The notes under the pieces were generated by a model, which had not been told where the DNA came from, did no database searches, and worked only from the letters and a program-made list of their open reading frames with translations. Made by a program: the position numbers and the translations under genes. From Rhizophagus irregularis (Eukaryota), in NCBI RefSeq assembly GCF_026210795.1, contig NC_089432.1, positions 2,480,001 through 2,544,000 on the forward strand: a stretch of 64,000 bases of DNA, in the 5' to 3' direction. This document shows, one piece after another, positions 19,076 through 52,001 of the stretch. Position 1 is the stretch's first letter. Every line of letters starts with the position of its first letter.

Positions 19076-19473
19076 CAGCTGATTTCATAATTTACGAGAA
19101 ACTTAGAGAACTCGGAAATATTCGGCAAAGCTCAAAATAAGATAAAATAAATTATACCACCATTCTCGGAATAGTACTCTAAAATTAGCGTATAATTTTT
19201 ATTTTATATCAAGCTTTACCGAATATTCCGAGTTCAGGACCCAGAAATATAGTTTGCGTATTTTGAACTAAAAAATCATAATTTTTTGATAATACCAGTC
19301 AAAATTTTATTTCCTAATATAGTAATCGACTGACATTATCATAATTTCGGCCCTGAAAAAATGTGTACAGCTCATAGTAAAAAATTTTTTCATCACCTGA
19401 CCCTATATATATTTCTGGATCCTCCAAGTTCTTTAAAACTTGTTAAGTGTCCCGTACATTATGAAATCAGCTG
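19076..19473. mobile_element. Tc1/mariner-type MITE (TA TSD, CAGCTG ends)
   Basis: TA|cagctgatttcataatttacg ... cgtacattatgaaatcagctg|TA; internal long inverted repeat at about 19109-19233. Confidence 0.8.
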
Positions 19474-23271: not shown

Positions 23272-24943
23272 TCAATTTCTTGGCTTAATTTCAACTAATA
23301 ATTCAGAAATTTTAATGCTATCATACGAAGTTTTAGTTTTAATAGGAGTACTCATATCTACTAAATTAATTTCATATTTCCTAAACAATAAAGCCATCAA
23401 ACAAACTAATTCTATCATTACCAACTTTCTTCCCGGACATAATCTTAATCCTCCACCAAACATGATAAAAGAATTCTTTTTTGGCTCAAAATTTTCAACC
23501 ATCCATCTATCAGGATTAAATTTATTAGGTTCTTCCCAATAATCATCATTATTATGAATGGCTTTAACATTAATTATAAACAATGTATCAGCTGGCCATT
23601 GATACCCTGCTATTTCATTGGGTTTATCAATATATCTTGTGAACGAGTGCATTATCGGGAAAACGCGAGCTACCTCTTTTACAATAGCTTCACAGTAACT
23701 TAAACTATAATAGTCATCTTTAGTGATTGATCGTTTTTTATTACCTTGAAATATACTATCAATTTCTTCTAGCATTTTCCTTTTCACATCCGGATTATGT
23801 ACAATATAATAGACAATTAATGAAAGCATATTCGAAGTCTGTATTTGAAATAAAAAAAAGGAATGATTAATATTATTTTAAGTTGAAATTATAAGCGTAA
23901 AATAAACCAAAATTTACTTTACAAGTTCCATTAAAAATTCCATCAAATAAATTAACGCGAATTTCAGAATCAGTCATAAATCTACTGGCTCCATCATTTC
24001 CAATATAATTAACATCACGAAATGTATTTTTGATAATCAACGTCGTCAACATATCATGCGGTAAGGGTTTATCCAATGGTGTATTTTCAATTCCACGCCT
24101 ACGTTTCTTAATGATTGCATCCAGTCTTTGATTAATAAATCCCATGTTTTGAAGTACATCATCTGATATATTTTTAAGAAACGGAACAAAATTTCGTAAG
24201 AAGGGAGGAATCAAGAAAAATATTGAATATCCCATAAGAACTTTACGAAGTGATTGGAATAATCTCACAGAATCTTCTACTATTATTGGTGGATAAAGAG
24301 ATTTTTCGTTACTGAGAGTATCAAAATAAGCTACCATTGAATAAGATTTTTCACCAGTTAACATTCTAATAATCATGTCATTTGTGTAATGATTAAACCA
24401 TTCAGGTAAATTCAATCTATTTTTATTTTCTTTAATAATTTCTCCTTTAAGAAATAACTTATTCCAATAATTTTCTAATTCATTGAAAAGTTTGTTTGTC
24501 CAACCAATAGCTTCATTAGTAAATTCCGGTGACAAAATAGCTTGATTAAAAACATGTCGATTAAATATCCACGATTTGAAATTATTATTAAACGTTATTC
24601 CTTTTCCTGCAATTCCCAATTCTTCTAATCCTTTGCTATTGTGAAATCTCATCTCATGCGTATTTTTTGACATAAAATCTTCAAGACATTCTGATCGACA
24701 TAAAACAATTGTTCGTTCCATACCGTTATAGATCTCATGTACGTCACCATATTTCTCGTAACAATAATCGTAAAACATTGAGCCATTTCCATTAAACCAC
24801 CAATAAATTTGAGGCAAGTTACCGATGAATGGTAATGGGAATGGACCGGGTAAAGGATTGACACGAGTAAAATACGTATAATAATAATGTGCCACAAATG
24901 TCACTAGCATTGTACTTAATAAAAAAATAAAGTCATTAATCAT
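23272..24943 (-). CDS. Cytochrome P450, 2 exons (24943-23918, 23838-23272)
   Basis: N-terminal TM anchor, PLPGPFPLP hinge, KEVAR (ExxR), PDRW, heme motif FGGGLRLCPG; GT-AG intron within the I-helix (NGTCK|TSNML). Confidence 0.95.
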
Positions 24944-26026
24944 CTTATCTAATCAAATTTATTTCTTTTCTATTTTATTTATTTTTTTTATCTATCTTAT
25001 CCCTTCTTTATTTTGTCTATTTTGTCTCTTTTTTTTTCGTTGAACAGCTCCTTCATATATTTTTGTGTTTTTTTTTATTCTATTTCATCTAACTTTCAAC
25101 TTCACTATTTTTTTCGGGTATATTTATAAATTTTGTTATATCAAGCGATCTGCAAATTATTTTGTACACTCTGACATTTGAAAAAACATTCCCTTCACGA
25201 ATGAAATAAATCATCATCCCGGTTTCCCAAAAGTAGGGGAATTCAATAAAGCTGATCTTTATAAGGATCTACCGATGTGGGCTGATGTGTAAATTTCAAT
25301 GTTTTGACACGTGAACACGTGAGTACGTTTTGAACTTACATAGTAATAAATAATAAGATCGTTTGAAAATGGAATCTTTTCTTTCCTCTTCGTTTTGTAA
25401 AATGGCGCAGTAAAAGCCGCACCTTTTCGTGTAAAAAAATATTTTACTTTAGGTTCGGAACTCGGAAGATACAAAAAAAAAATTTATTTTACCTTCGTGT
25501 CATATATACTAAAATAAAGAGATTTTTAAGAGTATTAAATGACTTGATCCTTTCTCTATTCTTGAAAAAAAATTATATTACGAAGGTTTAACTACTTTAT
25601 TCAGATTCCTTATTAATATGTACTAACTTTAAAATAAATTATGTTAAATTAGGAGTTCCATTTTAGATATTTCATTCTAAATTATAAAAACTCATTTGTT
25701 TTAACCTTTTATAAATTTACTTTATTACCTTTTTTAGAATTTTTTTTTTCGTTAAATTTTTAATCCCACGTTTTGTGGTAATCAGTATAATCAGTGAACG
25801 TGGCAAACGTGGCAAACTCATGCGCAATTTTGAAGATCAGACAAATGACATCGTCAGCTTATAAAAAAAATTAAATCTTTCCATTTTAGAGTAAGGTACA
25901 CGTTGATCCAATCGTTTGCACAATTTATTATCACACTTATACAAATAATAAGACTTTAGATTATAACGTGACATCAACATCGAAGAAGAAAATATTAAAT
26001 GTATTATATCGAAGATGACCTCTGAC

Positions 26027-27124: not shown

Positions 27125-27462
27125 TTCCTCTGACATTTTTTGTCGACAAACTTTTAATCAATTTTTATTTTATTTTATTACTAGAAGAGTAGTACTCCAA
27201 AACTATTACAAATAAAAGAAAGACAACATTTACATGTTCTACAACTAATATACGTGTATAGAATTTTGGACGTTAATCCCCTACAGGACCTCACCCTTCG
27301 GACTATCTATTCAAAAAGCTAGGACTACGCTAACCTTTCAAATGGGAAAAAAGAAAAATAAAAAGTGAAACCCGCCCATCCGAAAGATAAAGAGACCTAT
27401 AAAATAAAAGTAAATAAAATTTGTCCTAACTAAAATTGTCAATCTAAAAAGTAAAAATTAAA

Positions 27463-27530
27463 GATCCGTATTTTTCTTTCGGCCAAGGCCGCCACCTGTA
27501 AATACTGTAAGAGGTGGAATGGTTCACACT
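27463..27530 (-). ncRNA. Conserved structured RNA motif (predicted pseudoknot) in the element 3' UTR
   Basis: Near-identical block at 50123-50195; compensatory G-C to A-U change in the hairpin CGGC/GCCG versus CGAC/GUCG. Confidence 0.55.
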
Positions 27531-29536: not shown

Positions 29537-30460
29537 ATGTATAGTGTATAATATTTATTATAATAAAGGATAGTAAAAATGTATGTAAACGTGAAAATAA
29601 ATGGTATATTTAAGCGACAGTAGGAATAAAGAAAAAACTCTACTATAACTGCAAGGTTGAATATTACGTAAGGGGGTATATATGACGTTGTCTATTGACT
29701 GTATAATTCTATTAAAAGTAAAACTTTTACCATATGTATATACTAAAAGATATGGAGTGACTTGAGAATATTCGCGAGTTGTTGTAAGATAAAGAAAAGT
29801 ATTAGCAAGCGAAAAAAAAGTGTAAAAAAAACGTCTATTTTGTAATAATAAAAATATTTTACTGCGCCATTTTAGTAAAAATTGGGTTTATCGGAAAGAG
29901 TTTTTTTTTTCTCAAAACTTTTAATCAAATAAGGGATTAATTTTGAAACAATATAGTCCAGTGAGATCACGTGAACAAAATACGGCTAATAGGACAAACA
30001 CAAACTAATTTAGATTTATTTAAGCAAGGAGGACCTTCCAATAACAAACAAGATAAATTAGCGGAAATATTGAATTTTGTTATTGACAATGATGTAGTTT
30101 TTAGTTGATTTTTAGTTGTTTTTTTATATTTTTTTTTCTTTTTTTCCTTTCGTAGGTTTTTTTTTTCATCTAGGTTTTCTCACGGCAGGAACTTGCAGCT
30201 TCGTAGTCAGGTTCAGTGTTTTTTCTAGGTATTTAGTTTTGTTTGTGTAGGACATTTTATATGCCTGGTTACTGTGGGTCGATGGGCAGTTGTTTATGCG
30301 GCTTTATATAGTCACTTAGATATACTGTACATATGGGTGTTTTTATTACACTTGGTATCTCTGATTATATACTTATCACATGAGTTCCATCGCTGTAGGA
30401 CATGAACTAGTTTAGAATGTGGATTATGAAATTGTAATATACTTTATATGATTGATATTA

Positions 30461-37385: not shown

Positions 37386-37743
37386 CTTGACTGCACACCG
37401 CGCTGACCAGACGGCTTTAAAGGTTTTGAAAGTGGAGATTTGTATTCACTTTTGATATGTTTAGCGTTAATGGTTTTTTACTTTATTATGAACTTTCTAA
37501 AGAATCACAACCATTACGTGAGAGCTCGAAATGGGCCGCGTTTGGTTGAGTTTATTTTTACTTTTTTTTGTTCATAGTCTGTGTAGGTCAGAACCGGTGA
37601 TATGGCATGTTTAGTGTTAATTGTTTTTTACTTTGTTATGAACTATCTAAAGAATCACAACCATTACGTGAGAGCTCGAAATGGGCCGCGTTTGGTTGAG
37701 TTTATTTTTTACTTTTTTGTTCATAGTCTGTGTAGGTCAGAAC

Positions 37744-40216
37744 TAGAGATGTGCCATGCGCATTATGTGTTGCTATTATGCATTGCGCATAATGCGCATT
37801 ATGCGCATGATAAATTTTGTAATAAATTATAAGTTGTAATTCTGGTAAACTTTACACCCTAACTCCGGCCAAAATTATAAATTAACAAAAATGGAATTTA
37901 TAATAAATTTGTATTACATTAGATCTTTCACAAAAAAAAAATTTTTTTCTTCGTTCAATCAGTTCAAAAATGCCTCCAACTAGCCCTATTTGGGCTCACT
38001 TTAATAAACTTGGACATGTGGCTGGTTTTCGGCAAGCCCGTGCACAATGCAAATACTGTAATCATGAACTAAATGCTGCTGCTAACAAATGTATTGCACA
38101 TTTAAAAACCTGTTCAAGTGCAAGTATAACAGTTCTCCAAGGATTTTTTGGGCCAGATTTTAAACTTAGTGCAAAACAACGTATTAATTCCCATTTACCA
38201 ACAGAGCAAAATAATATTGTTACTATTAAGAAACAACCGCAAAAATCAATAAATAATTTTGTTGACAAAATAACTTCAGCAGAACAAAATGAAGCTGAAC
38301 TATTATTTGCACAAGCAGTTTACCGATGTGGATTATTCTTATCATTATCTGAACTAGAACCAATTAAAATTCTTTTTCAAAAACTTCGTCCTTGTTTTTA
38401 ATTGCCCTCACGAAAAGCTTTATCAACAACATTACTTGACACGGTATATGAGGATACAAAAGATGAAATAAATAATTTGATTAAATCAACTGATTATATT
38501 TGTTTGATTTCTGATGGATGGTAGGTGATATATTTTTTTTAACTATTATTTATATATTCATTATAAATATCTTGTATAAATATTTTTAGGTCAAATATGT
38601 TGCAAGAACATTGGACAAATTATTTAATTACCACGCCAAGACCAGTATTTTTCTCTGCTCATCAAACTGGTGAAATCAAACAAACAGGAGAAAATATTGC
38701 AGCCGACATTGATAAAGTTATATCACAGATTGATCATTCCAAACTTTCAGCAATTATTACTGATAACGCATCTTCAATGAAGAAAGCATGGAAACTTTTG
38801 GCTATTAAATATCCAAACATAGTTTTCCTTGGCTGTGTAGCTCATTCCTTAAATCTTCTAATTGGTGATATTATGAAACTCCCTTGGGCGGATAGTACTA
38901 TAAAAAATGGAAAGAAAATCGTTAAATATTTCAAATCACATCAAATTCCAGCTGCAGTTCTGAAACGATATCAAAGATCCAGTTATGATAAGCAAATTTC
39001 ACTTAAATTACCTGTAAAAACACGTTGGGGATCATCAGCTATTTGCCTTAATTCACTTCAAGTAAATCAGCTTGCTATTGAATTAACGGTAACAGAATTA
39101 TCACGTAATCAAACTGTTAGAATTGATGATGATATGAGAAGTATTGTATTAAATGATGGGTTTTGGAAAGATGTTGATAATTTACTCAAAGTTCTCAACG
39201 AACTTGTTATTGGAATTTCTATGTTTGAATCGGATACACCTTTTTTATCTAAAGTATTAGATTGGTATTACAATCAATTAGAATCATCAGGTAAAATATC
39301 ATTTTTTTCTTTGGTAAATATAATCTAAATTATTACTAATCAAATTTAATTTCTCAAGTTTATTTTTTTGATATAAACGGAAATAATACGAGTATTAAAA
39401 ATATTATCAAAAAAAGGTGGGAAAGTATTTACCACCCTGTTATGGAAGTTGCGCATCTGCTTGATCCATCATTCCATGGTTGCCATCTTACTTCTAATTC
39501 AATGGATAGAATTTCGCAGTTTATCCAAAAATATTATTCGGATAATGCAGTAATTATTTGGACACAAATCTTGAATTATAGGAGAAAAACTGGAGTTTTT
39601 GCGAATAAACTTGCTTGGGAAACTTCTGATAATGTTGATCCTATAACTTGGTGGAGTGGAAATTTTAGTGATTCTGCACCTGAACTTACTCAAGTAGCAA
39701 AAAAGGTTTTATCTATTCCAACATCATCTGCTGCGTCTGAAAGAAATTGGTCAGCATTTGCATACATTCATGATAAAAAACGAAACCGGTTGAGAGCTGA
39801 TCGTGTCTTTAAATTAGTGTATATTTATAGCAATTATAGATTACAAATGCCACGAGAAACGCCAGAATGGAAAGGGTTTACAAACGGGTTTGATAAAAAT
39901 ACTTCGTTAGACGGGGGAGTTGTAGATGACGAAATTCAAAGTTCAGGCGAAAATGAAGAAAGTGATTATGATGAAGATGTAAATAGTAGTAGTGAAAACG
40001 AAGAGAGTTTTAATGATAATGAAGCTGATGACTCTGATGTATCTTGTTAATAATTCAGTAAAATAAATAATAAAAAATTTTATTTTTTTGTAAAGAAATC
40101 GTATTTTTTTTTTCTGTATAACAGTACTATGTGTATCATGTGCATGATGCGCATGATGCGCATCATGCGCATCATGCGCGTGATAAAATGAAATTTCCGC
40201 ATTTTGCCCATCCCTA
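37744..40216 (+). mobile_element. Full-length hAT DNA transposon
   Basis: 8-bp TSD GTCAGAAC (37736-37743 and 40217-40224); TIRs TAGAGATGTGC / GCCCATCCCTA; subterminal ATGCGCAT repeats at both ends; internal transposase. Confidence 0.97.
37970..40050 (+). pseudogene. hAT transposase (BED finger, DDE, C-terminal dimerisation domain), 3 exons, one nonsense codon
   Basis: WAHF..CKYC..HLKTC; SDGW spanning intron 38521-38589; TDNAS; CVAH; TRWGS; SAASERNWS; second intron 39291-39358; in-frame TAA at 38399-38401 (RPCF*LPSRK). Confidence 0.92.
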
Positions 40217-40679
40217 GTCAGAACCGGTGATCTGGTATGTTTAGTGTTAATTGTTTTTTACTTTACTATGAACTATCTAAAGAATCACAACCATTACGTG
40301 AGAGCTCGAAATGGGCCGCGTTTGGTTGAGTTTATTTTTTACTTTTTTGTTCATAGTCGGTGTAGGTCAGAACCGGTGATCTGCCGTGCTGATTAAGAAA
40401 TTTGTATTCACTTTTGGTATGTTTAGTGTTAATGGTTTTTTACTTTATTATGAACTATCTAAAGAATCACAACCATTACGTGAGAGCTCGAAATGGGCCG
40501 CGTTTGGTTGAGTTTATTTTTAATTTTTTTTGTTCATAGCCAGAGAACTAGTGATATGGTATGTTTAGTGTTAATGGTTTGTACTTTGTTATGAACTATC
40601 TAAAGAATCACAACCATTACGTGAGAGCTCAAAATGGGCCGCGTTTGGTTGAGTTTATTTTTTACTTTTTTGTTCATAG

Positions 40680-41620
40680 TCGGTGTAGGTCAGAACTGGA
40701 AGTTACATGCTTGGAGGAAGATGATGAAAAGCGTGGGTTGTACGAACATAACACCTTATAAAAAGCAAAAATTGAAGGTAAGTTTTTTTTGGTTTATACT
40801 AAAATTAAAAATTGAATCAGATTTTTACTAAAAAAAAAACTTACTTTTATTATAGCCTGAATTTTGGACGTACGTGGTAAATTCCAGTAGCGAATTCTAT
40901 TATAACGGAAAAGTTTGGATTTAGAGAAATACAAAAAAATTGCAAGTAAGTTTGAATATGATGTCGTTTGTTATTTCATAATTGAAATAAACTTACTACA
41001 AACGTTTAATTAGTGCCTCAACGAAATAGTCGCATAATGGTCCAGGATGTCCTGCAAAAATCAAACCGGTTGTAACCCGAAATTTTATCTCTGAAATAAA
41101 AGATAGAGAATTGAATTCTCTGATAAAGAATATGTCATGATGAGCTCTTATGGTGTTGATCCGAAAATAACCTACTGTTACTATATCTAAAAGATAAAGA
41201 AACTCTTTGGCAAAAATTTGAGGATATCCTGATGGAATAAAGAGGACCTCTTTTATGGCACTTTTGGAAAGTGGTCAATATGTGTATTGAAAAGATTTGG
41301 GTGGGCTATGTAATTTTTGCAGTGTATATTGTTATGGAGTGTTTAATACGTTAATTAGTTTGGTACAATTACATGTAGAAAAGGAATCACGGGTATACAA
41401 TAAGAATATTACATAACAAAATTTTGTTTGAATTTATTATTTATAAAAAATTTGAAATAAAAAAATTGGAAATAAATATTATTTTCTAATTTTTATTTTT
41501 TTTTAAAAATAAACTTAAGAATTAAAAATAAACTTAAGAATTCACTAATAAATGAACTTGAAAAATTACGCCATCATCTAAAATGAGGTTTCGAAAATGA
41601 GCTTATTATAAATGACTATA
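40680..41620 (+). pseudogene. Degenerate multi-exon gene or transposon remnant of unknown function
   Basis: GT-AG-bounded blocks translating to fragments such as GPGCPAK, YLKDKETLWQKF, YPDGIKRTSFMALL and DLGGLCNFCSVYCYGVF, with stops and frameshifts. Confidence 0.5.
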
Positions 41621-41994: not shown

Positions 41995-44900
41995 GGTGCA
42001 GTAAAGAGTTAGGCGTAGCTAATAAATTGTCGGGCTAATTCACATGTCGGAAAAATTGCATTTCGGTGAAATAGCTGTCTGTAAATTGTACGTAACCAAT
42101 GTTTTCAGCCTGGGCAACAGAAATGATTTGTTATTTTAATATATAATTAATAAAATAATATTACTAAATTAAGGAGTATGGTATCGATTATGCAAGTATC
42201 GACAAAAGATTTGTAAAATAGTAATCCCTATATAGTAATCGCGGATATTGATGTCGCATGATGAACGAAGGGGATGCCGATGAAATAAAAGGATCACGTG
42301 AAGATACCACGTTTCACTGCATAATGCAACGTTATGGCCCATCATAAAGACGTTTGCCACCACAAGCTACAAAAATATTCCTTTATTAAATAAAATAAAA
42401 TATTAATATATCCCGAGTTTCATAATAAAATAAAAGAATAAAATGAATAATTTCAATATAAATCTAATTCTAAGACTATTTCTACTAATTATAAATCCTT
42501 AAATCAAATTGCGATAATTTCCCCTTATTAGTAATTCTTAATAAGCCATTAATTAAAATAATTAATGTGGCACTTTTTCATCCAAAAAGAATCGAACAGT
42601 GAAAGTATGATGTGAAAATTTTTAATTCGAAAATCTCCCTAATGTAAAGGATTTTAAGGTATATTTATATCTTTTTATGTTACACTAACATTCTAAATAG
42701 CGTCCCCATAGAAATTATTAAAATTTGTATAATAAATTAATTTCAACATAAAAAAATTTATATCATTGAAAATATTCCTTACTTTCTTATTAATACTGTA
42801 AAATGAATCAAAGGTCATGTCTGCAAAATGGCTTGTCAGCAAGATAGGAATTCGTTAAAATGGTTTCGAAAAAATGTGATATCGATAAAATGCCAAGTAG
42901 GCAACCCTATAAAAAAAATTCTGAAAAAAACTCCGATAAATAATCATTTTTCTAGTTCTCAAACATGTGATCATTTTTCTGAAAAATTAAATTTTTCATA
43001 GGGGCAAAATGACGTAAATTTTATGTCGGTGAAACAGGTGTCGGCAAAATGGGTGAATACGGAAAACATCATATTATTTATTTACCAACATGAGGTTCAC
43101 GATCTTTTAGACTATTAAAATATTTTTAATAATTTTTTGCATATTTATAAATTGAAATCATTTTTTTCACAATAATTTTCAAACTTTTAAAAAACATGAC
43201 CTCTTGATCCAGTTATAAAAAAATTGTGTAACATAATACATTACGTGCCAGCTGTGATATATAAAATATTAAATTTATTTAGAGATGATATATTAGAAAA
43301 TCAATTTCTTAATTCAATTTTAACTAATAATTTGACACAAGAAATTACAATATCATCACTTTTAGTTTTAATAGGAGAATTCATATCTACTAAATTAATT
43401 TCATATTTTCTAAACAGTAAAGCCATCAAACAAACTAATTCAATCATTGCTAATTTTCTTCCTGGACATAATCTTAATCCTTCACCAAACATGATAAAAG
43501 AATTTTTCTTTGGCTCGAAATTTTCATCCATCCATCTATCAGGATTAAATTTATTAGGTTCTTCCCAATAATCATCTTTATTATGAATAACTCCAACGTT
43601 AATTATAAAGAATGTTCCAGCTGGCCATTGATATCCTGCTATTTCGCTAGGTTTATCAATATATCTTGTATTCAAGTGCACAATTGGGAAAATGCGAACT
43701 GCTTCTTTTACAATTGCTTCACAGTATTTTAAACTGTAAAAATCATCTTTAGTAATTGGTCGCATTTTACCTTGGAATATACTATCAATTTCTTCTAGCA
43801 TTTTCTTTTTCACATTTGGATTATGTGCAATATGATAGATAATGAATGAAAGCATATTAACAATCTATATTTGAAATGAAAATAAAGGAATTGTTAATAC
43901 AACTTCGAGCTAAAGCATATTGCATTTATGATGAGAAGATCTAAAAATTTACTTTACTAGTTCCATTGGAGATTCCATCAAATAAATTGACGCGAATTTC
44001 ACTATCAGTCATAGACCTATTGCCTTCATCGGTTTCGATATAATTACCATCACGAAATGTATTTTTGATAATCATCGATGTCAACATATCATGAGGTAAG
44101 GGTTCATTCAGTGATGTATCTTCAATTTCTTTTCTACGTTTCTTAATAATTGTATCCAGTTTCTGATTGGCAAAACCTATGTTTTGAAGTATATCATTTG
44201 CTATATTTTTAAAAAACGGAACATAATGTCGAAGAAAGGGGGGAACTATGAAAAAAAAAAAATATCCTATATGAATTTTGTGAATTGATTGAAATAATTT
44301 CTCAGAATCTTCGACTCTCGCTGACTGATTATCAAATTTTTCATCACTAATAGTATTAAAATAAGCTGCCATTGAATAAGATCTTTTACCAGTTAACATT
44401 TTATTAATCATGTCAGTTGTGTAATGACTAAACCATTCAATTAAATCCAATTTAATTTTATTTTCTTTACTAATTTTTTCTTTAAGAAGTAACTTGTCCC
44501 AATAACTTTCTAATTCACTGAAAAGTTCGTTTGTCCAATCAATAACTTCATTAGTAAATTTTGGTGATAATATAGCTTGATTAAAAAAATGATGATTAAA
44601 TATCCACGACTTATAATTATTATTGTATACTATTTCTTTTCCTTCAAGTCCCAATTCTTTTAATCCTTCGTAATTTGGACATCTCATCCAATACATATTT
44701 TTTGATAAAAAAATTTCAAGATATTCTGCTCGACATAAAACTATACATCGATAAAAATTGTTAGTCTCATATATGTCACCATATTTCTTGTAACAATATT
44801 TATAAAACTTTGGAATATCCCCTTTAAACCAAACAGCATAAGGAAAAGTGCCAATGATTGGGAATGGGAAGGGGCCAGGTAACGGATTGACACGAGTAAA

Positions 44901-45043
44901 ATATTTGTAATAATAATATGCCACATATATCATTAATACTGTACTTAAAAGTGACAAAGCATTAATTTCGAAATTCTCGAGTGGATTAAAAATCATCTTA
45001 TCGAACAGCTGCTTCAGCTCCCTTAACTTAATTTTTTTTCTGG

Positions 45044-45076
<33 letters not shown>

Positions 45077-46623: not shown

Positions 46624-49433
46624 TTAATCTTCAATCACACATTCAAAACCTTGAGTCTCTAAAATTTCAGTAAGTTTGCGACTTGTATAATATGCTTGTG
46701 GATGAGATTGTATAATAAAAGTATTTTCTTGTTCTTGTACTAAAGTTTTGTTTGCTTCTACAAATTCAAACATATCATTTTCTAATTGATTATCAATATT
46801 AGATACTTTATATTCATAATTTCCTTCTCTGTTAATATTATAATATTTATTAATACATCTAATCCATTCAGATATAATATTTTCAAGCATTATTATAGTC
46901 GGTCTATTGGAAGAATTTGAATCCCAACATTTTTTCATTAAATTTACATAACATTTTGGAGTATTTTTTATAATTTCAGGACGTTTTCCTTTACAAATAC
47001 TCAAACTAAGGTATTGATCATGTACTTCATGTTTAAATGGAGGAATACCTGATGTAAATTCCCACATTATCAATGAAAAACTATAAATATCACTTGCTGG
47101 TGTATAGGGTTTTAATCTCAATATTTCAGGTGCCATATAAGGCAAAACTCCATAAATTTCATTAATTTTATTATTAGAATCTTGTAAATCACTTATAGGT
47201 TTACATAATCCTAAATCAATAATAAATAACTCATTGTAATTATCTGACATTAAAATATTACCATCATGTAAATCACCATGAATTAAATTTGATTCATGAA
47301 TTACTTTAAGTCCTAATATAATTTTTTTCAATAATTGTAACTTGTCTTGCCATTTAAACTTAATTATATCAGATAAACATTTTCTCAAACTTCCTTTTTT
47401 TGCGTAACTCATTACTATTATATAATTTAAATTATTTGGATCTTGAGTAAATCCAAAAAATTGAATAAATTTCGAAAATGATTTTTTTTGACAATTATAA
47501 TGATATTTCCACTATACAAATAATAAAAATAATTAAATTTTTGCAATAAAAATAAAATTTCTATTAAATATAAATACTATACCTCATCCAGAAATTTACT
47601 ATTTAAACTTGATGAATTATTAAGTATTTTAAGAATAACCTCATAGCCTGTTTGAAAAATACATCTATTCCATTGTTTTTTGTAAAAATTCCAACTATAA
47701 ATAGGTCCATCCAACCAGATAGCTTTATGAATTTCACTAAATCCCCCTTTATCATAATAATTAATACTTTTCAATTTATTATAAGGTATCCACTCTAAAA
47801 TTTCATAACTATTTTTAGCATTTAGTTGTCCTTCTTGAATAAATTCATCAATAAATTCATTTTTACTAGTCCATTTTGAAAAATCTTGTTGAAATCGTTT
47901 TGTGTTACATTGTTGGCACCACTGGTAATCAGTATATGGTTGGTTACATTCATTACATAATTCAATTTCAGTTATGGGGCTTACTTTGTCACTTTCTGTT
48001 ACTTTTTGATACCAATAAAAGGCTTTTTCTAAATTCTTCTCTGTTCCTTTCCCATCTTCATAACATATGGCCAAACTATTCATTGCTTCTTCATCACCAT
48101 TTTCTGCTGCTTTTTGATGCCAATAAAAGGCTTTTTCTAAATTCTTTTCTGCTCCTTCCCCATTTTCATAACATACAGCAATATTAAACATTGCATCGGT
48201 ATAACCATTTTCTGCCGCTTTTTGATACCAATAAAAGGCTTTTTCTAAATTTTTTTCTATTCCTTCACCATTTTCATAACATATGGCTAAACTATTCATT
48301 GCTTCTTTAAAACCATTTTCTGCTACTTTTTGATACCAATAAAAGGCTTTTTCTAAATTCTTCTCTGTTCCTTTTCCACGATTATAAAATGTGGCTAAGT
48401 TAAACATTGCAATTTCATTACCATTTTCTGCTACTTTTTGATACCAATAAAAAGCTCTCTCTAAATTCGTTTCTGTTCCTTCTCCATTTTCATAACATAT
48501 GGCTAAATTAAACATTGCTATTTCATTACTATTTTCTGCTGCTTTTTGATACCAATAAAAGGCTTTTTCTAAATTCTTTTCTGTTCCTTTTCCATTATTA
48601 TAATAAATAGCCAAATCATTCATTGCATTAATATGATCATTTTCTGCTGCTTTTTGACACCAATGAAAGGCTTTTTCTAAATTCTTTTCTGTTCCTTCTC
48701 CATTATAATAACTCCCTGCTAAATTAAACATTGCTTCAATATGATTTTTTTCTGCTGCTTTTTTATACAAATAAAAGGCTTTTTCTAAATTCTTTTCTAC
48801 TCCTTCTCCATAATAATAACATATGGCCAAATTATTCAATGCATTTTCATCACCATTTTCTGCTGCTTTTTGATACCAATAAAAGACTTTTTCTAAATTC
48901 TTTCCTGTTCCTTCTCCATTATAATAACGTGCGGCTAAATTATTCATTGCTTTCTCATTACCATTTTCTGCTGCTTTTTGATACCAATGAAAAGCTTTTT
49001 CTAAATTCTTTTCTGTTCCTTCTCCATTATAATAACATATAGCTAAATTATTCATTGCTTTTTCATTATTATTTTCTGCTGCTTTTTGATACCAATAAAA
49101 GGCTTTTTCGAAATTTTTTTCTGTTCCTTCTCCATTATAATACCTTTTGGCTAAATTAAACATTGCTTCAGTATGATTTTTTTTGGCTGCTTTTTGATAC
49201 AAATGAAAGGCTTTTTCTAAATTCTTTTCTGTTCCTTCTCCATCTTTATACTTATTGGCTAAATTAAACATTGCTACTTTATCACCATTTTCTACTAATT
49301 TTTCTAAGGAACTGATACATTCTTTACACCATAACTCTTCAGTAAAAGGTTTATTACAGTATAAACAATCTTCGTTGTTCACTGTATCAGTAACTTTATC
49401 TGAGATATTTAAATTGCTCAATTTAGTTTCCAT
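46624..49433 (-). CDS. Sel1-repeat (12x) plus C-terminal TKL-type kinase, 2 exons (49433-47583, 47511-46624)
   Basis: 12 repeats of 36 aa; KGGFS loop, VILK, HGDLHDGN, DLG, YMAPE, SDIYSF, CW..RP; in-frame GT-AG intron 47582-47512. Confidence 0.95.
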
Positions 49434-49876
49434 TTAGTTATTTTAGAAATTTATTTTACTGAAAAAAATTATAAATTTTTTTTTAGAAAATTTATTTTTT
49501 AGACTTTTTCCTTATTCGTGAATGAGTTACTAAAAAGGAAATTTTTAACCAAAAGTAGAAGTTACAATAAAAAAAAATTTTTTTCGGGTCATATTTTTTC
49601 CGGTGCACTGATCTGCGTTGAGCATAATCTTTCTAAAAAGTTTCAGCTACCTTCTTCTTTATTGTTTCTTGCTAAAAGTAACTTGGTAAAACTTGGTAGA
49701 GGTAAATAGTGCTCCAAATCTAACAATATAATCTTTCTTACCTTACTCTGAGTTTTACCGGGGTAGCATATCCATTATCACCTACTTAAAAAATTTTCAG
49801 TATCATCTTATTCTTAAAAGAGAATTTAAACTCTCTTCAATGGTGCATAATTTCTTACTGCGGATTTTTATGAAGA

Positions 49877-50764
49877 TTTATTTATTTCTATTTTATTTTT
49901 ACTTAGAAGTCGTGAATACATCGTTTAGTTACAGATTCGTTATGACTACAAGGCACATTATGAGTACACAGCTAAACTAGACAAAATCCAACGGGCGGAC
50001 CCACCCTTCGTTAGAACGAACTGACTAATGGAAACATAGTCGCTATAGCAGTAAACGAACAAAGGAATTAGAAGTTAAAGTAAAAATAAAGGGAAGTGTA
50101 CCGAGCAATTAAATAAAAAAATGATCCGTATTTTTCTTTCGACCTTTTGGGTCGTCACCTGTAAAATACTGTCATAGGTGGAGTGGTTCACACTATTCAA
50201 AATTGTTTGTGTTTGTAATAAAATGAATACATTGATGTATACTAATATTTAAAATGCTACACGTCAAAAGGGGATATAGACTCATTACTAAGTTAAAGCA
50301 GTAGATAAAAGAAATAAAATTAATACATGGTATCTATAAGTCCTACTACTGGGGAGTCCTTAGGGGAACCAGTTGAAGGACGTGATCTTTTCATCGGATT
50401 TGAGGAGTTATTGGAAGTAGATGTGCCGGTGTGTGAGGAGACGTTTGTTTGTTCGGATTTCGAGGTTTTTCTTATCGTTCGACGTCGCTGGATCTATTGT
50501 GGAACGGGGTCGTGGATTGTAATATTCTAGATCAAGTTTATCGAACTCGTCTTGTAATTTTTCGGATCTGTTAATACGTTGATCGGTTTTGCGTTTGGCT
50601 AAAAACTTAGTCACTATCCGGTGATACTTGTTTTGATGATTAGTTAGAAACTTTGTTTGATCAAGTCTCTCCGGAAGTTTGTGCATGCTCGTGCCGTGGA
50701 ATTGAGCATCACGGACGCGAGCGGATTTTACGAAGAAAGCCCAAAGTGCTATACAAATTGTATA
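49877..50764 (-). mobile_element. 5'-truncated, diverged copy of the 27162-29914 element
   Basis: Peptides FHGTSMHKL..FL..KRK..RS, TSNDKKNLEIRTNKR and KRSRP align with HLGTSVKYL..FL..KRK..RS, VSDDTAALESRPYKR and KRSRP; same 3' UTR motifs and A-rich tail. Confidence 0.8.
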
Positions 50765-52001
50765 AAACTATAAAAATCATCTTTAGTAATTGGTCGTATT
50801 TTACCTTGGAATATACTATCAATTTCTTCTAGCATTTTCTTTTTCACATTTGGATTATATGCAATATAATAGATAATGAATGAAAGCATATTTGCAGCCT
50901 AGATTTGAAATAAAAAAAAAAGGAATTGTTAATATAATATCAAGCTAAATCATATTGCATTTATGATTAGAAGAGTGTGAAATAAAATGAAATTCCTCTA
51001 AAAATTTATTTTGTGCATTCCATTAGAAATTCTATCAAGTAAATTGACGCGAATTTCACTATCAGTCATGGATCTATTGGCTTCATCGGTTTCGATATAA
51101 TTACCATCACGAAGTGTATTTTTGATAATCATCGATGTCAACATATCATGAGATAAGGGTTCGTTCAATGGTGTATCTTCAATTTCTTTTCTACGTGTTT
51201 TGAAGTATATCATTTGCTATATTTTTAAAAAATGGAACGTAAGATCGTAAAAAAGAGGGAATTATGAAAAAGAATAAATATCCTATATGAATTTTATGAA
51301 TTGATCGAAATAATTTCTCAGAATCTTCGACTCTCGCTGACTGATGATCAAATTTTTCATCACTAATAGTATTAAAATAAGCTGTCATTGAATAAGATCT
51401 TTTACCAGTTAACATTTTATTAACCATGTCAATTGTGTAATGACTAAACCATTCCATAAAATCCAATTTAATTTATTTTCTTTACTAATTTTTTCCAATA
51501 ACTTTCTAATTCATTTAAAAGTACGTTTGTCTAATAAATAACTTCACTAGTAAATTTTGGTGACAAAATAGCTTGATAAAAAAATGATGATTAAATATCC
51601 ACGACTTATAATTATTATTGCACGTTATTCCTTTTCCCTCGAGTCCCAATTCTTTTAATCCTTTGAAATTTGGACATCTCATCCCATGCGTTCTTTTCGA
51701 TAAAAAAATTTCAAGATATTCTGCTCGACATAAAACTATACATCGATGTAAATTATTAGTCTTATATATATCACAATATTTCTCGTAACAATAATAATTA
51801 TGAAACATTGAGATATTTCCTCTAAACCGAATAGTATAAAGAAAAGTACCAAATAATGGAAATGGGAAAGGGCCAGGTAAAGGATTAACACGAGTGAAAT
51901 ATTTGTAATAATAAAATGCTACATATATCATTAATACTGTACTTAACAGTTAAAAGTGACAAAGCATTAATTTCAAAATTCTTAAGTGGATTAAAAATCA
52001 T
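50765..52001 (-). pseudogene. Cytochrome P450 pseudogene (recent duplicate of 43301-44996), truncated before ExxR and the heme motif
   Basis: High nucleotide similarity to the second P450 including upstream DNA; several frameshifting indels; donor GT mutated to AT near 51008; homology stops after KDDFYS at about 50765. Confidence 0.92.

Follow-up and report, generated by a model that had tools for sequence, protein, structure and literature searches.

The closest described counterpart of the RNA considered here is found in the 3' UTR of the R2Tg element: a pseudoknot with base triples that is bound by the R2Tg reverse transcriptase (RT) protein and, in the account given in PMC12222951, makes up the last 67 nt of the RNA; the core of R2Bm is reported there to be spread across a 248-nt UTR. 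Class 3 exoribonuclease-resistant RNAs (xrRNAs) are described as forming a ring anchored by a P1/P2 bulge, a T-loop and an AGY motif (PMC12397905), the xrRNAs of plant viruses are placed in 3' UTRs and ~135 nt before an ORF (PMC6299227), and the core blocks of hammerhead ribozymes are given as CUGAnGA and GAAA (PMC10085705).

The locus described here lies in a window of 64,000 nucleotides from the fungus Rhizophagus irregularis (contig NC_089432.1, positions 2,480,001 to 2,544,000), about two-thirds of whose repeats are reported as unclassified (PMC11075540). The window is AT-rich fungal DNA with a base composition of 27% GC and with frames of the Sel1-repeat, kinase, P450, F-box-like, Kelch and hAT types. 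Two insertions in it, called element 1 and element 2 below, carry a small RNA motif that, as judged from three DNA copies and one peptide read-out, is real, covarying and uncatalogued. Like the R2Tg pseudoknot as described in PMC12222951, the motif is a small conserved 3' UTR pseudoknot of an apparently target-primed element, with A-rich single strands, and it is likewise the most conserved non-coding block. Unlike that pseudoknot, it ends 250-307 nt from the 3' end, has a hairpin inside its last loop and recurs as a second copy in the 5' leader. It also differs from R2 in that the ORF here is DUF8211 and not an RT-endonuclease, the insertions are dispersed, and binding is a prediction. Because the R2Bm core is spread over so long a UTR, the position of the motif does not exclude an R2-type job.

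The DUF8211 element and its surroundings

Element 1, on the minus strand, is ~2.75 kb long and contains a single ORF, which belongs to the DUF8211 family (PF26638; 27650..29536, minus strand) and is broken by an in-frame TAG at 28057-28055. It is flanked by an exact 14-bp repeat, a candidate target-site duplication (5' copy 29915..29928, 3' copy 27148..27161), and ends in an A-rich, (TAAAA)n-like tail at 27161..27180. None of ~3000 random local windows had a flanking repeat as good as this one, and two 2-kb tests put the chance levels at 1/56 and 1/147. Element 2, also on the minus strand, holds the C-terminal fragment of another DUF8211 ORF, truncated at its 5' end and frameshifted (50320..50720; tblastn E 5e-12 to P0099), which retains roughly the last 130 codons and starts inside a P450 pseudogene region. 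At the truncation point lies the 5' copy of its own candidate duplication (50721..50736), and an A-rich tail (~49904-49877) followed by the 3' copy (49876-49860) occupies 49860..49904; this duplication is weak, being gapped and matching in 15/17 columns, with 58 of ~3000 random windows as good.

A-rich tails, 5' truncation and target-site duplications are marks of target-primed reverse transcription. Both copies here have the tails and candidate duplications, the duplication of the second being the weaker, and the second copy is truncated. Given the tails, the candidate duplications and the one 5'-truncated copy, the DUF8211-ORF element looks to have been inserted by target-primed reverse transcription, and its carrier is likely a non-LTR retroelement, so that the placement of the motif in a retroelement-like 3' UTR, as originally proposed, holds. 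No RT or endonuclease ORF lies inside either insertion, 31 long gene models contained no RT and no Pfam family, and a weak search for a longer fused form of P0001 carrying an RT found none. DUF8211 may be an additional ORF of a LINE or else cargo carried by a non-autonomous element.

The 3' UTRs of the two elements share a second block, which in element 1 (27268..27300, minus strand) reads CGAAGGGUG, followed by a stem with G.U pairs, and has its counterpart in element 2 at 50010-49993 (minus strand). Its distance to the tail is ~120-135 nt, two gene models (P0006 and P0389) run through it, and its fold is by itself not significant. The leader and 3' UTR of element 1 have nothing in common except the motif. 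Near the 5' end of element 1, AAAAUGGCG at 29874-29866 (minus strand) opens a three-codon frame; it presumably resembles the motifs found at LINE 5' ends.

Several neighbouring features were noted. There are three P450 paralogues on the minus strand (23272-24952, 43301-45047 and 50754-51955), the third of which is frameshifted, lacks its C-terminal part and ends at ~50765, directly before element 2. A hAT transposase remnant at 37907-40050 (plus strand) retains zf-BED, DUF659 and dimerisation domains, and its region (37437-40718) has a 179-nt subterminal repeat family on each side. Directly after element 1, 27135-26500 is a repeat of higher GC content whose parts resemble one another and which may be a miniature DNA transposon; 26562-26600 matches 19366-19404 at 90% in inverted orientation, and 19108-19235 forms a long imperfect hairpin that weakly matches a microRNA precursor model (E 0.24) and is probably a small inverted-repeat element. 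A Sel1-repeat gene (47577-49433, minus strand) has 108-nt units repeated 12 times in tandem, and a kinase frame (46624-47511) comes after it. Lys-rich, frameshifted frames (30260-29967, minus strand) border the 5' duplication of element 1 on its outer side and are possibly the remnant of another element into which element 1 inserted. The frame at 30179-29967 had no match in Pfam and lies outside the duplication, and a reading of it as part of a LINE ORF2 is unsupported.

The DUF8211 ORF of element 1 gave 126 matches, and the named ones among the 120 matches listed are all from Rhizophagus; it shares 99% identity with a fragment from R. irregularis, a profile search with a cut-off of E 0.001 returned 623 cluster representatives, and one of the relatives looked up is from Glomus cerebriforme. 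The protein is basic (pI 10.0; median 9.7 over 51 sequences). A C-x14-C-x14-C-x2-H motif (residues 164-197; 29047-28946, minus strand) is kept throughout the aligned rows (47-49/47-49) and is likely a zinc site, and the C-terminal part is a long helix. The core domain (28864-28412, minus strand) has a high-confidence predicted fold (pLDDT 93, pTM 0.81). Foldseek gave no match at E up to 0.001, the VIA matches of the whole model covered the long helix only, and the domain alone reached a best structural Z of 2.9 among 48,161 PDB representative chains; there was no PDB sequence match and no usable Atlas feature match. On the model, the core domain is a candidate new fold, although missing matches of this sort do not by themselves establish novelty. 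An internal duplication in the protein was rejected (HHalign probability <1%).

Three copies of the motif and support for its fold

The copy in the 3' UTR of element 1, c1 (27463..27529, minus strand), is predicted to form a 6-bp stem P1 (27517-27512 with 27497-27492) with a 6-nt loop, a pseudoknot between 27505-27500 and 27473-27468, an AC linker after the first pseudoknot strand, and a hairpin at 27491-27480 that is followed by the A-rich linker AAAGAA. The copy c2 (50123..50193, minus strand) belongs to the 3' UTR of element 2, the one truncated at its 5' end, and has its core at 50181-50128. The original prediction had quoted both sequences; its letters are correct, and the blocks are found where it put them, at 27529-27463 and 50193-50123 on the minus strand. 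It had also described the block as better conserved than the ORF or the surrounding UTR, which agrees with what we find: with 81% identity over 102 nt (blastn E 3e-20), the block is the only strong blastn match between the two elements among the matches listed, and 55/60 aligned columns are identical outside the hairpin, as compared with mostly 38-57% identity in 40-column windows of flanking UTR and 32% protein identity in the ORF tail common to both elements.

What these two copies say about structure is more limited. The compensatory change of G-C to A-U in the hairpin is real, but it is no proof alone, as one of 20 pairs covaries between c1 and c2 and 258 of 500 shuffles do as well. The extra U of the c2 pseudoknot strand is not compensatory, as c1 and c2 have the same 3' pseudoknot strand. 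The pseudoknot with embedded hairpin pairs in both copies, except that the terminal P1 pair of c2 is broken (C.A), a point that had gone unmentioned. Nested folding of c1 and c2 gives ordinary z-scores (0.25 and -1.28). In both copies GAACC and GGAUC could pair as a closing stem, but this stem is lost in the third copy and unreadable in P0061 (see below), and was dropped; a hairpin upstream of the motif was not significant.

A third copy, overlooked earlier, came to light in the 5' leader of element 1 through a covariance model of c1 and c2. This copy, c0 (29701..29755, minus strand), ends 165 nt before the AUG, and the 5' end of the element lies ~160 nt before it. The model that picked it included P1 and the hairpin, and the match (29692-29787) ranked third of 14 with an E of 0.11; a model of all three copies found no fourth in the window. 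With a GC content of 20% and an identity to the other copies of 40-41/59 columns, c0 nevertheless has the same spacing as c1 and c2, namely a 6-bp P1, a 6-nt loop, AC, a hairpin and a 6-nt linker with AGAA. Two P1 pairs and one pseudoknot pair are changed on both sides, one pair has become U.U, the hairpin is wholly replaced by a 6-bp AU-rich stem, and the pseudoknot is of 5 bp and AU-rich.

Across the three copies, 8/17 pairs are changed on both sides (two in P1, one in the pseudoknot and five in the hairpin, these five being in the hairpin that c0 replaced outright), 49/51 cells pair, and 0/500 shuffles reach this level of double change and pairing; slid registers of the same alignment are 33-46% paired. 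A sequence-free descriptor of the fold, drawn up after c0 was known, matches exactly c1 and c0 in the 128 kb of both strands, as compared with a mean of 0.04 matches in 25 shuffled windows. Allowing one P1 mismatch gives four matches, adding c2 and one poly-A/T artefact, against 0.76 expected, and requiring AC and AGAA as well leaves c0, c1 and c2 only, with 0 matches in 25 shuffles. A degenerate pattern, itself derived from the three copies, recovers the same three and has no match in 100 shuffles. As a control, 0/26 viral loci with the same sequence pattern have all three stems.

Further evidence comes from P0061, a gene model of R. diaphanus that runs through the motif, with the match in its tail, after the last domain match. 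Among 406 proteins scanned it scored 32.1, the best of 406 shuffles scoring 27.0. Read through degenerate codons as a single peptide, P0061 differs in 7/57 readable columns from both window copies at codon-fixed letters, and four of these seven differences make up two compensatory pairs in stems named beforehand: pseudoknot pair 2 changes from U-A to A-U and hairpin pair 2 from G-C to A-U, and none of the stem pairs of the original prediction is forced to break. Random placement of the changes gives p 0.0012, or 0.0004 with none broken, on the assumption of uniform change. The descriptor alone matches 1/406 real and 2/406 shuffled proteins, and by this measure P0061 is not significant. The tail of another protein, P0394, reads the 3' half of the motif unchanged and counts by position alone, its score of 27.3 equalling the null maximum and lying below those of unrelated in-ORF matches (27.9). 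Since c0 keeps the spacing with its stems re-paired and P0061 contributes two double changes, we take the motif to be supported as a predicted three-stem H-type pseudoknot.

Comparison with known RNAs

The coronavirus frameshift element and the preQ1-II riboswitch are built as a stem 1, a loop pairing, a hairpin, a linker and a closing strand. The strand order of the motif is that of these three-stem pseudoknots; it differs from both in its non-coding context, in having no slippery site and in having no Rfam match. A -1 frameshift pseudoknot was rejected, as a slippery heptamer lies upstream in 0/3 copies and all three are non-coding. The likeness to class 3 xrRNAs as described in PMC6299227 and PMC12397905 consists of a stem-loop with a pseudoknot to a 3' strand, of positions both upstream of an ORF and in a 3' UTR, and of an AG in the linker directly before the 3' pseudoknot strand. 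Unlike the class 3 RNAs of PMC12397905, the motif is without a J1/2 bulge and without an L2B T-loop, and has AGAA and not AGY; its P1 is an unbroken 6 bp, two nucleotides (AC) follow the pseudoknot strand, a hairpin is inserted, and the host is a retroelement.

With HDV-like ribozymes, as described in PMC5640933, the motif has in common two crossing stems followed by a variable hairpin, and CGAA after the hairpin in c1 and c2. It is unlike them in being without P3/L3 and P1.1 and in having 2 nt between the crossing strands. In c1 and c2 the C of the CGAA is taken up by hairpin pairing, and in c0 the A-rich linker is not preceded by a C, which leaves no catalytic J4/2 C. A relaxed HDV descriptor, run without a positive control, had 0 matches on 5/6 strands; on the antisense strand of c2 it had 10, without the L3 consensus. 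With P3, L3 and P1.1 absent and no conserved core on either strand, an HDV-like ribozyme was rejected, in agreement with the reservation made at the outset that P3/L3 was missing; the candidate catalytic C is not kept either. The motif resembles non-circularly permuted hammerheads (PMC10085705) as a pseudoknotted small RNA with GAAA after the hairpin in c1 and c2, and departs from them in having no CUGAnGA and in that the GAAA is not kept in c0. An exact CUGAnGA is absent on 6/6 strands in any strand order (there is one match with one mismatch, in c2), and hammerheads in circular or permuted order were rejected for want of a conserved core. Rough motifs for the twister, pistol and hairpin ribozymes in their unpermuted forms gave one match, a pistol-like 7-mer in the c1 antisense flank. 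A retrozyme or Penelope terminal repeat was rejected in that leader and 3' UTR are not near-identical (41/59 columns, in the motif only), a splice acceptor in that the YAG/G of c1 and c2 is lost in c0, and SECIS, hairpin-ribozyme and loop-E readings were dropped by eye, broken by c1 or P0061.

The motif had no match in Rfam 15, at E up to 1 for the window and at E up to 10 for the two UTRs. Viral scans returned 6 loci (by eye unrelated), 0, 0 and 26 (none with three stems), and a protein-led viral scan gave three candidates, none confirmed. The motif was absent from the 21 loci of a metagenome scan, none of which (0/21) encodes DUF8211, and from the 2 of a prokaryote scan; model R1 had 0 matches in 29 loci, and a search with the open frame across c2 found nothing. 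Three short motif words are absent from eight supplementary files of PMC8647823 (file 1 left out) and from one of PMC11075540; repeat libraries outside these files may hold the element. No description of the motif and no paper on DUF8211 or PF26638 was found in the literature searched, a body that excludes most subscription papers. R. irregularis is absent from the main text of the fungal motif survey PMC5640933, as is the word ribozyme from the main texts of the R. irregularis transposon papers PMC11075540 and PMC8647823.

Possible functions of the motif

Our preferred reading, to which we would give somewhat less than an even chance, is that the motif serves as a protein-docking fold for selecting the element's own RNA, by analogy with the R2 3' UTR pseudoknot. 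It is preferred because the R2Tg pseudoknot is its nearest precedent and because the templates were uncut: both insertions include DNA from each side of the motif, which implies RNA templates not cut at it. The ORF-sense transcript would fold P1, on which the hairpin would stack, and the A-rich linker would run along P1 and close the pseudoknot, leaving the invariant unpaired AC and AGAA, together with the conserved pairs, as a surface that could be read by the basic DUF8211 protein or by a mobilising RT. Binding would assemble an RNP and favour the element RNA for target-primed reverse transcription, as in avian R2. The leader copy could serve as an additional site in translational control or in bridging 5' and 3' ends, or alternatively be the UTR mark of an upstream ORF lost by truncation. 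Being basic and carrying a near-invariant CCCH motif, the DUF8211 protein is a plausible second reader of the motif. A plain RT-recognition signal, in turn, fits less well than first seemed, because 250-307 nt lie between the fold and the 3' end and there is a copy in the 5' leader. Against docking itself are this distance, a leader copy that an RT signal would not need and whose position is like that of plant-virus xrRNAs (PMC6299227) and of ribozymes that open translation in fungal viruses (PMC13725137), the weak duplication of element 2, and that neither element nor any of the 31 gene models contains an RT.

The copying of both insertions straight through the motif also disfavours an efficient, fast sense-strand ribozyme. 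There could instead be a slow or regulated self-cleaving ribozyme of an undescribed kind, excising the ORF from a longer transcript or opening cap-independent translation, and in its favour are the size of 50-55 nt, the invariant unpaired bases, the presence of one copy on each side of the ORF and the report of translation driven by ribozymes in the UTRs of fungal RNA viruses (PMC13725137). This we consider distinctly improbable, in view of the insertions having been copied through the motif, with ends ~160 nt ahead of c0 and 250-307 nt beyond c1 and c2, of the absence from both strands, whatever the strand order, of a conserved HDV or hammerhead core, and of the two copies in element 1 being identical in 41/59 columns and thus not terminal repeats. 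An exoribonuclease-resistant RNA of a new kind, at which Xrn1 would stall in the leader to give a subgenomic DUF8211 mRNA and in the 3' UTR to give a short non-coding tail RNA, would suit a stem-loop whose 3' strand pairs back into the loop and a copy that ends 165 nt before the AUG, much as plant-virus xrRNAs are placed at ~135 nt (PMC6299227). It is improbable all the same, as the P1/P2 bulge, T-loop and AGY of PMC12397905 are not present, c0 is 20% GC with a 5-bp AU-rich pseudoknot, and an uncapped product would require cap-independent translation.

Each copy begins 104-139 nt after an in-strand stop codon, and this would fit a post-stop host signal in a polycistronic RNA, acting in protection from nonsense-mediated decay, in reinitiation or in 3' end formation. 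We find this rather improbable, given that the frame ended by the stop ahead of c0 is short and of uncertain reality, that stops are frequent at 27% GC, that there is no upstream slippery heptamer and that the splice-acceptor-like YAG/G is lost in c0. Were the fold to act on the opposite strand, as an antisense RNA or first-strand cDNA, the lower plus-strand energies and z-scores of 3/3 copies (-0.24 to -1.48, as compared with 0.24 to -0.80 for sense) would be accounted for, and the C.A break of c2 would become U.G. The lower energies are partly a composition effect, however, the additional hairpin of the antisense strand does not reach significance (z 0.32, -0.49 and -1.85), the sense strand gives the second UTR block its better fold, and the element's polarity also favours sense. 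Pseudoknots usually have a polarity in which an A-rich linker runs along a GC-rich stem, and it is the sense fold that shows it. The opposite-strand reading is, on balance, very improbable. To the idea that the block is a conserved DNA sequence, or its pairing due to chance and its structure not selected, we give almost no credence: the near-zero nested folding z-scores and the count of three DNA copies would agree with it, but the P0061 test, the descriptor scans and the double changes among the three copies speak against it.

More ambitiously, a new RNA-processing class might bracket an accessory gene, one that may encode a protein of new fold, and cut out a subgenomic mRNA as RNA viruses do. 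It would be either a self-cleaving ribozyme or an RNA that blocks nucleases, the latter being the first in a eukaryotic retroelement; this is unlikely. A fold on both sides of one ORF is, to our knowledge, unusual for non-LTR elements. Whichever reading applies, the large orphan family DUF8211, with its 623 cluster representatives, is tied to an element with retrotransposition marks, and that element gains a conserved RNA fold that matches no Rfam 15 family. The three natural variants, at 50-55 nt, are cheap to test. Should the motif cleave or block Xrn1, it would represent a new class; should it be a docking site, it would provide a compact handle on RNA selection by these fungal elements.
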